From: Microbotryum violaceum
Taxonomy: Eukaryota
Assembly: GCA_001244265.2 (NCBI GenBank)
Contig: CDLV01000011.1
Coordinates: 372,001 to 436,000, forward strand
Length of the DNA: 64,000 bases
Reading direction: 5' to 3'
The notes under the pieces were generated by a model. The model ran no database searches. It was not told the origin of the DNA and saw only the letters and a list, made by a program, of their open reading frames with translations. Position 1 is the first letter of the stretch, and each line of letters starts with the position of its first letter. The translations under genes and the position numbers were made by a program. Shown here in pieces: positions 27,526 through 34,071 of the stretch.

Positions 27526-29669
27526 CCCACCTCCACCTGGCTTTCCTCACGACCCAGGCATGATGGGAGGCGGCGGTCCACCACCTGGGTTCGTTCCTCA
27601 ACTCAGTCAGGAAAGGTTCAAGTTGTTCGTGGGCAAGATCGCCGAGATGAGTGATGGCTGGTTGAACAAGCTGTTGGAGGTCAGTCTGCGAGGGTGCTCG
27701 TCGGCGTAACCCGAGTGGCTTCGAGGCCATGGAAGACTCGGACACCTACTCACACTCTATCATTTCATACATTCAGATCGCTGGACCTGTTTTGTCCGTC
27801 ACTCGTCCGGCCAGACCGATGGCCTTTGTCGAGTACGGTGACCCCGAGGTAGTTCTTCGTGCGCTCGAGGTCCTCAACGGCGCTGCCATCAGCTACCCCT
27901 CTGGCAAATCCGACGCCTTGTTGATCAAAACTGACGACAAAGTACGAGCGAGGCTCGATGAATACGAGAAAACGCGGGTGAACGACAATGTGAGCGTTGT
28001 CCTCCAAGGCTTCTGTCGCGATGAGCAGCGAATGGGAGCTGATATGCTTCATCCTATCGTGCACAGTCCCAAGCCGATCTATTGGAACAAGCCAAGAACG
28101 ATCTACGTGTTATCGCAGACCGCATCAAAAAAGGTGAATCCCCCTCCGCTGCTCGAGCACCCCTGGGCGACTCGGCCGAACCCGACGACGATGGCATCCC
28201 CGCCCATCTCCGCGATCTCGCACCCGAAGACCTCCCCGAGCACCACCGCGAAGCCATCACGTCCGAGATTGCCATGTTTCGTGAGATTGCGTTCAAGAAG
28301 GCCGCGGAGAAGAAGGCCGTGCAGTTGAAGAGGGAGCAGGAGGCCGTGACGAATCGGATTCTGGCAGAGAGGAGATCGGTCCCGACTGGGCCGGCGAGGT
28401 CGAATTCGCATCCTTCTCTAGCTGGTGCTTCTTCGTCAGCTCCACCGTCGGCAAGCTCCAAGTCAGCACCTGGACCTACGGACGCTCCGAGCGATGATCC
28501 GCAGAGCTATAACAAGCCTGTGACCTTCGTGAGCGAGGGGACGGGACTGGACGATGCGCAAAAGGAGCGCGAGAGGGCAGAGAGGGCGTACAGGGATGCA
28601 GAGGCACTCTTTCACGAGGTGAGCACCTCAAACAATCTAGGGCCTGGCTTCAAACCTTACTGAGTAAGAACTTCCACGCCCACAGCGCGAGCGGAGATTC
28701 GAGCAACGTGAGCGACAACGAATCAACAACTACGACCGAGAACGAGCACGCGAGCGAGCCGAAGAGGAGCGCGAAGCCCGAGAACGAGACGTGATGTTGG
28801 ATCGCTTGGCACGATGGGACGACGAAGCTGAAGTTGAACGAGGGCGCGAATTGTTCTACATCGATCGATCGAGATGGAGGACCCAACGCCGAGCTCAGCG
28901 ACAGCGTGAGCAAGAAGCCGATGACCTCGATCGTCAACGCGAGAAGGAAGAATATGAAGCCGCTGCCAAGCAGGGTGATGCATTCCTTGATCAATTGGGA
29001 TTCCTCGCACCGCCTTCAGGACTGGACGTCAAACTCAAGCTCGAACCAACCGTCATTAAAGCTGCGATCAAACCGGCCAAACCTGCGACGAGCTTATTGG
29101 GTTTGGCCGATGATGACGAAGAGGGCAAGACGAAGCGTGCGCTCATCCCTCTGGTGTACGACGACGACGGAGGAGGAGGAGCGGAAGATGGCAAGTCGTC
29201 AAAGGAAAGGAAGGAAGATCTTGAGGCAAGGATACCGAGATCGAAGGATGAGGTGTTTGCCTGGCCGATATACTGGTCCGGACTGAGCGAGGTACGTACG
29301 CGTGCAGTTCTGGTCGTCTCGAAATTCCCATGCTGATCGCCATTGGACCAATCGCGCAGGCTTTGATCACCAAGGAGCTAGTGCCCTTTACGACAAGTAT
29401 GATCGTTGAGTCCCTGGGATTCGAGGAAGAGGAACTCTTGAGCGCCGTGATGACTCACATTAGGAGACACGCTGCGCCGCACGCGCTCATCGAGGAACTC
29501 GAACCGGTGCGCATCCATTCACTAGCTCGGCATTTAGCAGCTCGATTTCTCGTTGCTAATCCTTTGTCTGTCATAGGTCCTCGACGAAGAGACGAGCGAG
29601 TTCGTCGTCAAGTTTTGGCGCGAATTGATCTTGCGGACCGAGTTGAGCAAAAAGGGAGGAAGCAAGTAA
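27153..29669 (+). CDS. SNU71: U1 snRNP-associated protein Snu71/RBM25 (RRM, RE-rich coiled coil, PWI domain)
   Basis: Pro/Gly-rich N-terminus, KLFVGKI..AFVEYGDPE RRM, WDDEAEVERGRELFYIDRSRW, IPRSKDEVFAWPIYW and PWI domain (IVESLGFEEEEL..VLDEETSEFVVKFWRELI). Confidence 0.88.
27485..27523 (+). repeat. (CAG)13 microsatellite encoding polyQ in Snu71
   Basis: Perfect CAG run read directly. Confidence 0.95.
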
Positions 29670-29935
29670 GCCAAAAAGCTTCTCTCCTCATTCCGTCGAG
29701 TCGTATTCTGGTGTGCGTCCGTGGCTGGTCGAATACTTTCTTCTTACCCACTCTTACGGAATTGCTCTTGCTCTGCCCTCTACCTTGAACTCTCTCTGCA
29801 ACGATATGCAATACCGTCATGAACTTTTCCGTCATGATACGAGAAAGTCCCATAGCGATCTTCCACGATCCAAAATAGGTTTTGGTGAGATCGTAATGAT
29901 GTTTCATGTGTTTCGTGACATTAAAGTATCAAGCT

Positions 29936-32900
29936 CTAAGCCTCCCTAGCCACATTCATAGCCTCAACCTCCAAGGCCTCAATCGCCGTCCTCTTCCCAG
30001 CTCCTCCAGGAGGGATCTTCGAAGGTCCTGCAGCCCGCAACCCTACACCGGCGGTATTGGCTCTTCCCCCTCTTGTGTCGAGCCCCTGTGCTCGGAAAGG
30101 GTTGCCCCATCCCATTCGCGCACCAATGAAGTTGCGCGCGAATAATTCGCCGAAACCTGAGGATGCTCGAAAGGAATCAGTCTCTACCCCAACCAAAAGC
30201 TGTCACAAGCCCGAGTCAAAGCACTTACCCAACATGACCCCATTGATGAACGGCAAACCAAAGTTGATCACGACGGAAGCGAGAATAGCAGGTAGCTTGG
30301 CTGCCCAAGGGGTCGTTTTCCATGTGTTGACGATCGTCAAAGTCAAAGAGGGGGCATCTTCCGCTTGGTGGGAAGGGTCCTTCTTGTCGTCGTCGTCGTC
30401 GCCGTTGGAGGACGGAGGAGCCGAGTTGGAAGTCAGCATTTCACCGATCTCACCTCCCAAAGCGGAAGGCACGGCGGCGTCATTTGTTGTTGCGGGAAGA
30501 GTTGATGCCGATTCATCCGCCGAACCTGCCGAGTTCTCACCCGAGATAGGTGCAATCGGTGTATCGACAACCTCGGCCTCCGACCCTGAAGCAGCAAGGT
30601 GCTCCTGCAGAGCCGAAGCTGAAAGCCCAGCGTTCTCCTCAAACTCCTTCTCCTCAACCTCCTTCTCCTCAACCTCCTTCTCCTCAACCCCCTTCTCCTC
30701 AACCTCCTTCTCCTCAACCCCCTTCTCCTCAACCTCCTTCTCCTCAACCTCCACCTTAATCGGCTCAACCTCATCAACATCAAGCAGATCATCCAAACTA
30801 GGAAGCGCGATGACCTGTTCCGCCGTCAGAGGCATCTCGTCCCCATCCAACGTCTCGGGAAGACCCGTAGAAGAAGTCAAATCCGATACCGAGGGGAGTG
30901 ACACGGGAATGCGGTCTTGAGATCGATCGGAGGTGGCGCGGGCAGAGGCGATTTCTTCGGCTGAGATGAGGAGGTCGGTCGATTTGGATGAGGGGACGAC
31001 GGACGCTTGGATCTCCTTCTCGACTTGAAACGGCGCCGAGACGTCCTGCTCCACAATTCGGGTCTCCTCCACAGGCGGGACGACGGACTGAACAGCAGTC
31101 GAAACGTTCTCCACGAGCGACTGAGTCCCTTTGATAACGTTGTTTTTTGCTTCCTCGGCGACCTCGATCGACTTCTCGACGGAATCGGAGACGACATCTT
31201 TGGTAGTGTCGTATGCCCCGGAGACACACTCCTTGGTTGTCTCGACAACTTCCGAAACGGCCTCGTGAGTCTGTTTGACGGCATCTGAGACAACATCTTT
31301 GGTCGTCTCAATTGAACCAGACACGACCTGCTGGGTCATTTTGTATGATTCGGACACGACCTCCTGTGTGGTCTCGGCAGCATCCACAACAACCTCCTTC
31401 GTGGCCTCGGCAGCGTCCGAAACAACTTCCTTGGTTTTCTCGTAGGTGTACTCTGCAACCTCGGCGGCCTGCGACACCTTGTCCGAAACGACATTCTGGG
31501 CCGTTTCGATCGAATTTGCGACGACCTCTTTGGCGCTCTGAACCACTTCAGAAGTCTTGTCGACGGCCGCCTCTGTCACCTCACTAGCTTGCTCAACGAC
31601 TTGCTCGACTTGAACCTCGGCTCGTTCGACGACTTCTTCAGCGATGGTAGAGACGTGCTCCTTGGCAGCCTGTATCAATACGGTAGTCAGCACAGAGGTC
31701 AAGGAATAAGAATGAACAGATCGATCATCTTGCTCACCTGCGCCGTCTCGGATGCAGAAGCGGCCAACTCCTCGACTTGCTGCTTAGTCTTCTCGATAAT
31801 GGGAGCCTCCGAATTGGCCTGCTCGACCGCAGCCTCCTCCACTTGCTTCGCTTCAGCTTCGTGCACAGCGGTTTCGGCCTCGACCTCCGTCGTGCTAGGC
31901 TCCGGTGCAGGGAGGTCCACCTCGGTTTCCGGCTCGACGTCGACCTTGACTTGTTCCGTTTCGACCTCTGCTTCCTTTCGGACCTCCTCGGCTGCCTCTG
32001 AAAGCTCAGGCGTGGCTTCGGCCTGAACCTCATCAGGCTTTGTTTCCTCGACAAGAGCTGTCTCCTCAATCTTGTCCTCCTCGACCTTGTTCTCTTCCAC
32101 CGGCGCATCCACCTTGTTCACTTCCACCTCCTCGGCCGTCTTCTGCTGCTGCTGCTGCTCCTTCAAATGCAACTCTTCTTCTTGCTCCTCGACCCTCCTG
32201 ACCACCTCCACAGGCGGCTCAAACCTCGGCGCCTCGGCATTCAACACCTCCTGCTCGACCTTCTTGGCCATTTCGGCCTCTTCAACTTTGGCCGTCGTTG
32301 CGGGCGTAGGATCGAATTCGATCGCTGTTGCGGAGAGGGTCGAGGTGCGAGCAGCGGCGGTCTTTTTCTTTTTCTTCTTCTTGTTCTTACTACCGCTCGT
32401 ACTTGTAGTATTCGTAGTTCCGATGGTGGAGCCGGCTGGATCGTGGGAAGAAGTGATTGAACTAGAACTCGCGACGGGGATTGAAGAAGAAGGGGCTTTG
32501 AGTCTTGGCGAGGAAGGGATCGCCGACGACGACGATGCCGCTGAAGCTGAAGCTGAAGCTGCAGCCGTCGAGACACGCCGCTTCTTGGGGTCGGACGAGA
32601 TGAGATTGGGAGGAGAAGGAGTCGAGTTTGACGGGGAAGGGATGTGGCTGTGCGCCGTTCGAGAAGAGGGGTGGGTGAGCGTCGAGGTGGACTTGGATTT
32701 GGGGGAAGAGGTAGGCGACGAGGAAGCGATCGCGTAAGCGACCGTCGGGGTCGAACCTGGCATTTTCGAATTCAAACTCGAGTTTGAAGGGGTCGAGGCC
32801 GAGGCTGGGTTGGACATGGTGCTGAGGTTGGAAGTGGAGGACGTGCTCGACGGAGCCGGTCGGGCGTAAGGATGGTGATGATGATGAGCGCCCGTGGTCG

Positions 32901-32964
32901 AGTTGGTGGGAGTCGAAGAGTGGGAGCTCAGAGTTGTCGGTATCCTCGAAGCGGCAGTTGTCAT
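29936..32964 (-). CDS. MIM1: Giant (962 aa) protein with C-terminal Mim1/Tom13 mitochondrial outer-membrane domain and internal 11-mer repeats
   Basis: Exons 32964-31738, 31669-30229 and 30156-29936 total 2889 nt in frame; splicing restores INFGLPFINGVMLGFGELFAR, the Mim1 TM signature. Confidence 0.8.
30644..30748 (-). repeat. 7 x 15-bp coding tandem repeat (VEEKE/VEEKG)
   Basis: Units CTCCTTCTCCTCAAC / CCCCTTCTCCTCAAC on the + strand. Confidence 0.92.
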
Positions 32965-33229
32965 GTTTCAGGAGCGTCGTTTCCTTTTCCGCGCGCGTTG
33001 AAATGGAAAGGAGACCCCGTGGATCGTGTGGGCCAAGAGCAAGAAAAAGGAGACGCTCCTCTCGCTCCCTCGTTTCCTCGCAGTTCTCTCGCTTTCTCGC
33101 GGCCGAGCGCTTTCGGGAGCGCTTTCGGGAGCGCTGCCGAGAGCGATCCTCCTCTGCCCTCTCGCACGCCACCTTAGGCTCGCAAACGCACACCTCAAAC
33201 CCCCCGCCTCCACTCACAACCACAAACAA
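32965..33229. promoter_or_regulatory. Putative bidirectional promoter (265 bp) between MIM1-like gene and PAM18, with a 12-bp tandem repeat
   Basis: Divergent ATGs at 32964 and 33230; GAGCGCTTTCGG x2 plus GAGCGC at 33105-33134. Confidence 0.6.
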
Positions 33230-34071
33230 ATGGCTTCCGTCCTCGTAGGAGCCGGTGCATTGCTGGGCATCGGCGTCGCCGCACGAGCCTCTCTCCGATC
33301 AGCGGCCAAGAACGGCGCCAAACTCTCCCCTCTGATGGCCGCGATCGCAGGTCAGAAGAAAGCAGGCGACGAATGGGTCAAGGGAGGCTTCCAGGGAAAG
33401 ATGGACAGGAAGGAGGCGGCGCAGATCTTGGGGCTGAGGTGAGTTGCGCCGTCGAGAGAGGGACGGGAACGAGCTTGCGAAGCTTCACCCTTTCGAGGTT
33501 CGCCGTACATGGAGGGAATCGTACAGCGCAGACATGTCGAGTTCTTGACATGTTCGACAACATCATTCCTGGAAGAATGGATGCTGGAATGATCCGTTCG
33601 AAGAGGCTACACCCATCCGCGATCCAGCCCCGGCCCGGAAGACTCACACTTCATCTCAACCTCCCAGGGAATCGCACATGACCATCAACCGACTCAAGGA
33701 CGCACACCGGCGGATCATGTTGGCGTACGTTCCCATACTACCGAATACAGGGACGCTCGGACCCCTCCGGACTGACACCCTCTCGATGCGGCGCCTCGGA
33801 TAGAAACCACCCCGATCGAGGAGGAAGCCCATATATCGCTTCCAAAGTCAACGAGGCAAAGGTAGGCTCCTATGACTCGAATTATGAGCTTCCCATCGCA
33901 TCAGCTGACCCTTCCCCATTCTCGCTTCTGACTGCAGGATCTCCTCGGTACGCTTTCCTCTCGACACCCGACAGACTTCTCGCGATCCCCTTCATGCCCC
34001 GAAAAGCAAATAGCCTTCTGATCCCTCTCGTTCCCTTTCTCTCATCGACAGAAAAACAACTCTCCAAGTAA
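33230..34071 (+). CDS. PAM18: Mitochondrial import motor J-protein Pam18/Tim14
   Basis: [55 protein letters not shown] across 5 exons, including a 10-nt micro-exon at 33938-33947. Confidence 0.95.

Follow-up and report, generated by a model that had tools for sequence, protein, structure and literature searches.

Mim1 (Tom13) is a subunit of MIM, the insertase of the mitochondrial outer membrane, and there is hardly room for doubt that one gene in the DNA analysed here, a stretch of 64,000 nucleotides (nt) from Microbotryum violaceum contig CDLV01000011.1 (the window), encodes this subunit in a Microbotryomycetes-like basidiomycete yeast. Its product has 962 residues, and a long N-terminal extension precedes the membrane domain. 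Comparison with relatives suggests that the best-conserved element of this extension is a PAM2-type motif, and not the array of 11-residue repeats that it also contains. It is proposed, as a reading whose chances we put somewhat short of even, that the extension as a whole works as a cytosolic arm on which MLLE proteins such as Pab1 dock.

The exon structure was compared with contigs of four public runs (X1, X4, X8 and X9), placed on 29800-33100. The contigs of X8 and X9, two runs of one study, miss exactly 72 nt at 30157-30228 and 68 nt at 31670-31737, and the ends of these gaps read CT..AC on the plus strand. X8 and X9, whose kind is not recorded, are taken as RNA-derived only because their contigs are spliced. 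Since these contigs skip both introns, both splice sites are in use, so that exon 1 continues into the repeat array and exon 2 into exon 3; on the exon 1 side, the spliced contigs of X8 and X9 span 30723..33028/33100. The contigs of X4 are unspliced at both introns, and X1 contributes only four small pieces over the region. The sequence-only reading of this DNA had joined three exons in frame to 962 residues, and the exact splicing in X8 and X9 bears it out. The gene is laid out as follows.

32964..29936, minus strand: Mim1 gene, three exons, coding sequence of 2889 nt, 962 codons and one terminal stop, from the sequence and its frames
31738..32964, minus strand: exon 1, residues 1-409, an open frame and a splice donor, with the start codon at 32962-32964
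31670..31737, minus strand: intron 1, 68 nt, GT..AG, from the sequence; spliced out in one contig each of X8 and X9
30229..31669, minus strand: exon 2, residues 410-889 and the first base of the Gly-890 codon (480 codons and 1 nt)
30157..30228, minus strand: intron 2, 72 nt, GT..AG, dividing the TOM13 transmembrane signature; spliced out in X8 and X9
29936..30156, minus strand: exon 3, residues 890-962 and the stop, the second half of TOM13, with a tail expected to face the intermembrane space (topology from excerpts of PMC6010339)
30230..30376, minus strand: first half of the Mim1/TOM13 domain and start of its single transmembrane helix (PF08219, E=0.0047, profile positions 36-58; alignment A1)
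30633-30752, minus strand: 15-nt tandem repeat, 8 copies with 95% matches, encoding (EEKEV/EEKGV)n right behind a conserved acidic motif

None of the four runs has the whole coding sequence in one contig, because every assembly breaks in the 15-nt repeat at 30633-30752, throughout which the reading frame is open. At this repeat X4 yields several alternative short contigs; as all four runs break there as well, its copy number may vary from strain to strain.

The identification as Mim1 comes from the C-terminal end of the protein. The end of exon 2 alone scores 17.3 bits against Pfam PF08219 (TOM13; E=0.0047), as half a domain and under the cut-off of 25, and the exon-3 half alone gives no TOM13 match; the halves were scored separately, the domain being divided by intron 2. 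Among 8000 scored candidates, the exon-2 query had three matches to longer proteins at E<=0.001 (P0001-P0003; 863, 1046 and 1082 residues), which come from one Microbotryomycetes species and two Rhodotorula species and which themselves reach 41.8-48.8 bits for TOM13, over the cut-off. The exon-2 and exon-3 pieces adjoin gaplessly on all three (alignment A1), where the homologues read ...GVMLG-FGELFARN..., and across the junction they are 68% and 62% identical to P0001. A Kyte-Doolittle plot shows one hydrophobic peak only, at residues 866-890, and the transmembrane signature NxGLPFxNGxMLGFGE lies within a conserved C-terminal region of about 120 residues with one transmembrane helix. The identity of the gene follows from these scores and alignments, together with the spliced transcripts and the profile search described below. 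The transmembrane signature noticed beforehand is present and continuous over the splice junction, in an alignment with homologues that pass TOM13. The Pfam test succeeds in these homologues and falls short for the exon-2 half of the window protein.

The characterised yeast Mim1 is small, of about 113 residues. Saccharomyces cerevisiae Mim1 belongs to the same PF08219 family and likewise has one transmembrane segment with a G-rich signature near its C-terminus, whereas the protein described here carries before this domain a motif-bearing and presumably cytosolic extension of about 850 residues. In yeast, the N-termini of both Mim1 and Mim2 are cytosolic, and the C-terminus of Mim1 lies in the intermembrane space (PMC6010339; this paper and the others cited here are drawn on in excerpts). 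By this topology, the first ~850 residues of the window protein would be exposed to the cytosol.

Long forms of Mim1 recur among the relatives. A profile of alignment A1, run against 1.84 billion representatives, finds 714 proteins at E<=0.001, 89 at 1e-10 and 14 at 1e-30, and its closest matches are 675-1165 residues long. In a first set of 152 homologues (150 listed among the 714 matches, plus earlier ones), 30 have at least 500 residues and crowd the top of the match list, and the distant ones, among the matches listed, mostly have 100-450. The full fetched set comprises 174 homologues, 45 of them long and 129 shorter. Proteins of 474-1511 residues include 31 matches (607-1382 residues), and every named one is from Microbotryomycetes (Rhodotorula, Sporobolomyces, Rhodosporidiobolus, Phenoliferia, Meredithblackwellia and unnamed Microbotryomycetes) or from Cystobasidium minutum (1382 residues); below 474 residues there are 15 matches, and the named ones are Agaricomycetes of 254-359 residues. 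Since all named long matches fall into these two groups, as against the short forms of Agaricomycetes, giant Mim1 appears to be a class-level trait of these Pucciniomycotina yeasts and not a peculiarity of this genome. The orthologue of Rhodotorula toruloides is P0157. The length survey across Basidiomycota suggested by the sequence-only reading thus separates long forms in the red-yeast relatives from short ones in Agaricomycetes, and its impression that the architecture is undescribed stands in part: no description of long forms was found in the literature on Mim1 in Basidiomycota, in Rhodotorula or on N-terminal domains and homologues in fungi, but the protein is not unique, because at least 45 long homologues lie unannotated in public databases, labelled hypothetical or with automatic names only.

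In the databases, some models (P0025, P0026, P0027, P0028, P0030 and P0034) match only profile positions 1-46 to 1-51 and end at ...GVML or within about 30 residues beyond it. They probably miss the last exon, beyond a conserved intron that divides the TOM13 signature.

The elements of the extension are the following; the Ser-rich region, the Glu-rich region and the 11-residue array that had been noted upstream of the Mim1 part are all present.

32365..32964, minus strand: basic, Ser/Thr/Pro-rich disordered head, residues 1-200, ending in a K-run at 32362-32388 (TRF rows 32361-32388)
32308..32343, minus strand: PAM2-type motif A, STLSATAIEFDP, residues 208-219, with Leu3, Ser4, Ala7, Glu9, Phe10 and Pro12
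32215..32250, minus strand: PAM2-type motif B, EVLNAEAPRFEP, residues 239-250, with Leu3, Asn4, Ala7, Phe10 and Pro12, and Arg at position 9, where Glu is preferred
31076..31669, minus strand: array of about 18 units of 11 residues, residues 410-607 (exon-2 residues 1-198), consensus approximately T-T-K-E-V-V-S-D-A-V-E
31359-31432: 33-nt DNA repeat inside the array, which fits growth by tandem duplication
30767..30838, minus strand: conserved acidic motif EMPLTAEQVIALPSLDDLLDVDEV, residues 687-710, matched by regular expression in the window and in 20 of 45 long homologues

The PAM2 motif is defined by a hydrophobic residue, usually Leu, at position 3, Asn or less often Ser at 4, Pro or Val at 5, an invariant Ala at 7, a preferred Glu at 9, an invariant Phe at 10 and usually Pro at 12 (PMC2854688), with the consensus LNxxAxEFxP (PMC7356810). 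Motifs A and B have every invariant PAM2 position, and both have Ala at position 5. In the AlphaFold2 single-sequence model, motif A falls in a stretch predicted to be disordered, and helices 228-242 and 252-282 are joined by the coil that holds motif B. Motif A occupies the same position as a motif kept in 36 of the 45 long homologues, where it sits some 200-250 residues from the N-terminus, and a second motif resembling B is found in 5 of the 45. In the first homologue set, L-[NS]-x-x-A-x-x-F-x-P or L-[NS]-x-x-A-x-x-F-x-F-x-P occurs in 23 of 30 long proteins and in none of 122 shorter ones (shuffle mean 0.17, maximum 3); among all 174, the F-x-F-x-P form is found in 36 of 45 long homologues and the F-x-P form in 5. 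The PAM2 pattern as defined in the literature matches 38 of the 45 (shuffle mean 0.24), against 1 of 129 shorter proteins, where the match falls inside the transmembrane helix. Across 29 distinct motif segments, Ser1, Leu3, Ser4, Ala7, Phe10, Phe12 and Pro14 are invariant or nearly so. When 28 long homologues are aligned, the invariant columns of the extension are M1, A98, P127 and the L, S, A, F, F and P of the motif; these homologues were chosen for carrying the motif, so that the informative point is only that nothing else in ~750 residues is invariant. From these comparisons the PAM2-type motif, and not the 11-residue array, appears as the best-conserved element of the extension. The homologue motif was also considered as an Atg8-interacting motif (F-x-x-V) or as an FFAT-like one, readings that were rejected because the window copy drops those cores and retains all PAM2 positions.

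The head in front of the motifs is rich in Ser, Thr and Pro (55% over residues 1-207, net charge +19), and residues 1-227 are modelled as coil with a predicted confidence (pLDDT) below 50. An N-terminal H/S-P-Y-A-R-P element (32860-32880, residues ~29-36) aligns with SPYARP in the consensus of the long homologues. This shared element suggests a collinear disordered head throughout the clade, although BLAST detects no similarity there. Between the array and TOM13, only the acidic LDDxLDVD stretch gives composition-adjusted BLAST matches (24 subjects); its pattern is AE-x-V-x-A-x-P-x-L-D-D-x-L-D-V-D. A further pair of elements, E-K-x-G-W-W-x-x-x-Y-x-P, is found in 28 of the 45 long homologues, those of Sporidiobolales type, and in 2 of 129 shorter ones (shuffle mean 0.29); in these giants, for example P0002 and P0003, the GWW elements flank the acidic LDVD motif (in P0003 at residues 416 and 759). 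The Sporidiobolales homologues (P0002, P0003 and the consensus of alignment A3) also contain three to four copies of a module with VGSAGAQGDEF and LGxFLxxAF, which is absent from the window protein. Taken together, the Mim1 arm seems to be fast-evolving and mostly acidic, save for a few short linear motifs.

According to the proposed mechanism, the C-terminal ~120 residues with their single transmembrane helix would perform the insertase function, and the cytosolic arm of ~850 residues would present the PAM2-type motif twice, behind the basic, disordered, Ser-rich head. The motif would dock an MLLE domain, most simply that of Pab1, and so bring poly(A) messenger ribonucleoprotein particles (mRNPs) to the insertase. 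The acidic LDDxLDVD motif would bind a second partner, and the 11-residue array would most likely serve as a long semi-rigid spacer, an amphipathic helix of about 195 residues, for which binding to lipid surfaces would be possible and secondary. A more specific version, on balance doubtful, makes the giant Mim1 of Microbotryomycetes and Cystobasidiomycetes a built-in mRNP receptor: its invariant PAM2-type motif would dock Pab1 or an Rrm4-type MLLE protein, so that polyadenylated mRNAs are translated beside MIM, and the Upa2-like GWW elements of Sporidiobolales would add a link to endosomal mRNA transport.

Precedents for such docking are known from another basidiomycete. The endosomal adaptors Upa1 and Upa2 of Ustilago maydis, which act at a membrane surface and have PAM2 motifs within extended disordered stretches, bind Pab1 through these motifs (PMC8490996, PMC12852828), and GWW is an endosome-targeting element needed by the multi-PAM2 protein Upa2 (PMC8490996). 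Related PAM2-like motifs, whose core is F-x-Y, bind Rrm4 (bioRxiv 10.1101/2024.03.22.586338). GWW elements recur in the 28 long Mim1 homologues, not in the window protein. Upa1 and Upa2 attach to endosomes, through a FYVE domain or a partner of GWW, whereas Mim1 would attach to mitochondria through its transmembrane domain. In yeast, OM14 together with NAC has been proposed to serve translation at the mitochondrial surface (PMC8490996), although OM14 is an unrelated protein and its recognition principle is another one. The literature searched yielded neither a PABP (poly(A)-binding protein)-docking protein of the outer membrane nor a link of PAM2 or MLLE with that membrane or of MIM with mRNA or Pab1; Ustilago supplements of predicted PAM2 proteins might list a Mim1 orthologue, and the main text of the bioRxiv paper, whose supplementary tables lay outside this check, does not mention Mim1.

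It is an open question what keeps mRNAs and ribosomes at the mitochondrial surface, and another is whether translation and the insertion of helical outer-membrane proteins are coupled; the known surface receptors for mRNA or ribosomes are unrelated to insertases. If the docking mechanism is true, poly(A) mRNPs would be coupled directly and physically to a mitochondrial insertase, an arrangement of which no description was found. An insertase with an invariant motif of PABP-docking type in a whole fungal class would make this coupling testable in a tractable, industrial yeast, Rhodotorula toruloides. Mim1 is thought to need only its transmembrane segment, and even with a partner other than Pab1 a clade-wide giant Mim1 that conserves two or three short motifs would be an undescribed elaboration.

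Several observations weigh against docking to an MLLE domain. Binding is proposed from the likeness of the motif, and Pfam PAM2 (PF07145) does not match either window piece or two of three homologue pieces, the third reaching 15.8 bits (E=0.011), below the cut-off of 20; whole-protein Pfam scans of the homologues give TOM13 only. Searches of the PDB return no chain of a PAM2 peptide at E<=10, neither with a 61-residue window query nor with a profile of 28 sequences, the matches being at chance level (DNA polymerase III tau chain, E=1.3, for the 61-residue stretch; sorting nexin 1, E=0.31, for the profile). At position 5, where Pro or Val is preferred, both window motifs have Ala, and a Pro-to-Ala change at this position costs Paip2 a 5-fold loss of affinity (PMC2854688). 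Position 12, usually Pro in PAM2, is Phe in most homologues, 7 of the 45 long ones have no match to the PAM2 pattern, and the motif counts reflect common descent and not independent events. GWW is found nowhere in the window protein. An extra short isoform from an internal start may also exist, the contigs giving no information on transcript starts. Neither for nor against docking counts the prediction of a complex between the 61-residue stretch with both motifs and a stand-in fungal PABP MLLE, which gave 0.30 and 0.29, with a mark of 0.34 and without controls; the stand-in is the metatranscriptome contig L013 (Pfam MLLE, 107.9 bits), whose nearest Atlas clusters are ascomycete PABPs.

In an alternative of somewhat lower probability, the arm would be a scaffold or spacer whose motifs bind partners other than MLLE proteins, and the likeness to PAM2 would be coincidental. 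Candidate partners are a kinase, a chaperone or TPR receptor, and factors of autophagy or of contact sites. From conservation alone it follows only that the motif is a short linear motif with a function; it falls short of the Pfam PAM2 model, and its commonest form in the homologues is F-x-F-x-P and not F-x-P; the acidic LDDxLDVD motif, moreover, has no assigned partner. A precedent exists in Schizosaccharomyces pombe, where Atg43, a cytosol-facing adaptor with an Atg8-interacting motif, binds Mim1-Mim2 and serves mitophagy (PMC7609059), although Atg43 is a separate protein with a different motif, whereas here the motifs belong to Mim1 itself. What speaks for PAM2 nonetheless is that the invariant L, A and F of the motif and its polar position 4 are exactly the positions that define PAM2, that the window copies restore F-x-P, and that the candidate Atg8-binding core F-x-x-V, seen in many homologues, is lost in the window motif.

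The 11-residue array was the centre of the sequence-only reading, and its periodicity is real. At lag 11, exon-2 residues 1-198 have a similarity of 1.23, where 1000 shuffles give -0.24 +/- 0.14 (z=10.2), and further peaks appear at lags 22, 33 and 44. The hydrophobic moment at 98.18 degrees, the angle of an 11/3 helix, is 0.355 (z=10.4), with no coherent signal at 100, 160 or 180 degrees. The hydrophobic face is Val-rich, made of Val, Ala and Thr, and the net charge is -24 over 198 residues, about -4 per 33. Run without an alignment, AlphaFold2 models two helices in the array (2-109 and 113-196), at a pLDDT of ~75. A Foldseek search of the array model against the PDB gives nothing at E<=0.001; the best geometric match, to a hairpin model of 30980-31669, is 4ke2, the hyperactive type I antifreeze protein of winter flounder (TMq 0.62, TMt 0.72, root-mean-square deviation 3.0 over 174 columns, but E=8.4), a lead only. 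The nearest language-model clusters are LEA_4 (0.86), perilipin-4-like (0.83) and phasin (0.83), all below 0.9 and likewise leads only. The repeats noted beforehand as resembling LEA and perilipin arrays may, then, behave in that way. The corresponding Pfam families are not recovered: Apolipoprotein (PF01442) scores 20.6 bits against a cut-off of 90 and Perilipin (PF03036) 5.8 against 33, LEA_4 (PF02987) has no row at E<=10, Phasin_2 has a weak row, and no PAT domain is found. The array is a genuine amphipathic repeat of the 11/3 type, which may behave like perilipin, LEA_4 and apolipoprotein and is not a member of these families.

Nor is the array shared with the relatives. Composition-adjusted BLAST with the array and exon 1 gives no match in the 174 homologues, and a lag-11 scan of the other homologues of at least 300 residues reaches at most 0.96, as against 2.37 in the window protein and a shuffled maximum of 0.75. 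Uncorrected BLAST had matched the array to eight relatives; these matches were set aside as compositional, since they fall on the equivalent acidic stretch, have no lag-11 signal and disappear with composition adjustment. This absence, together with the 33-nt repeat that fits tandem duplication, points to a lineage-specific regularisation of an acidic spacer. The array can accordingly be neither what defines giant Mim1 nor what explains it in the clade; alone it would be a lineage-specific curiosity.

It had been suggested that the array might bind the monolayer of lipid droplets and the protein so tether them to mitochondria, which now seems improbable. Many relatives are oleaginous yeasts. 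The array has a true 11/3 periodicity with a Val/Ala/Thr face and long predicted helices, its look-alikes include perilipin-4-like and LEA_4 clusters, under 0.9, and weak Pfam rows name Apolipoprotein, Phasin_2 and Perilipin. Like perilipin-4 and group-3 LEA proteins (LEA_4), it repeats an 11-residue unit in tandem to give an 11/3 amphipathic helix whose hydrophobic residues are small, but it is strongly acidic where perilipin-4 is net positive (PMC5889406), and it sits in a membrane-anchored insertase subunit. The perilipin-4 helix carries +1 per 33-mer, and when this was changed to -1 it became cytosolic unless its hydrophobicity was raised; a negatively charged, more hydrophobic helix still reached droplets, and the authors consider positive charge advantageous, not essential, for droplet targeting (PMC5889406). 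With about -4 per 33 residues, the array lies beyond the -1 that abolished targeting at wild-type hydrophobicity, although its Val-rich face may make droplet binding physically possible. The Pfam scores far under their cut-offs, the missing LEA_4 row and PAT domain, and above all the absence of the array from the other homologues of at least 300 residues tell against the tether.

Slightly less probable still is a shield of LEA or holdase type, in which the array and the acidic arm would keep hydrophobic outer-membrane precursors soluble near the insertase, or protect the organelle surface during desiccation or cold. Some relatives come from cold habitats, the top look-alike cluster is LEA_4, and the 11-residue-repeat helical hairpin of 4ke2 resembles the array in geometry (a lead only, given its E value), against which stand the want of an LEA_4 match in Pfam and of conservation of the array among orthologues. 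Finally, it is very improbable that the gene model is an artefact, standing for two genes or for a lone short Mim1 mRNA that begins within exon 2: transcript starts are invisible in the contigs and no contig crosses the 15-nt repeat, but X8 and X9 show both introns removed, the repeat does not interrupt the frame, and in dozens of species a single protein has the N-terminal motif, the acidic motif and TOM13 in this order.

Two plus-strand genes flank the locus. The divergent neighbour (33230-34071) starts ~265 nt upstream of the Mim1 start codon and encodes a product that opens with a hydrophobic segment followed by ...MDRKEAAQILGLR, with ...LKDAHRRIMLA and NHPDRGGSPYIASKVNEAK in later frames; we take it to be a Pam18/Tim14-type J-domain protein of the mitochondrial import motor, and Pfam run on its first exon alone gave no match. 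If this assignment is right, two mitochondrial import genes would have one common promoter region. The convergent neighbour (29252-29800), for which Pfam gives only weak PWI and SipA rows (E ~0.07), ends close to the Mim1 stop. As the X8 and X9 contigs over Mim1 exons 2-3 run ~1.9 kb further left, the two genes probably overlap at their 3' ends or nearly touch there.

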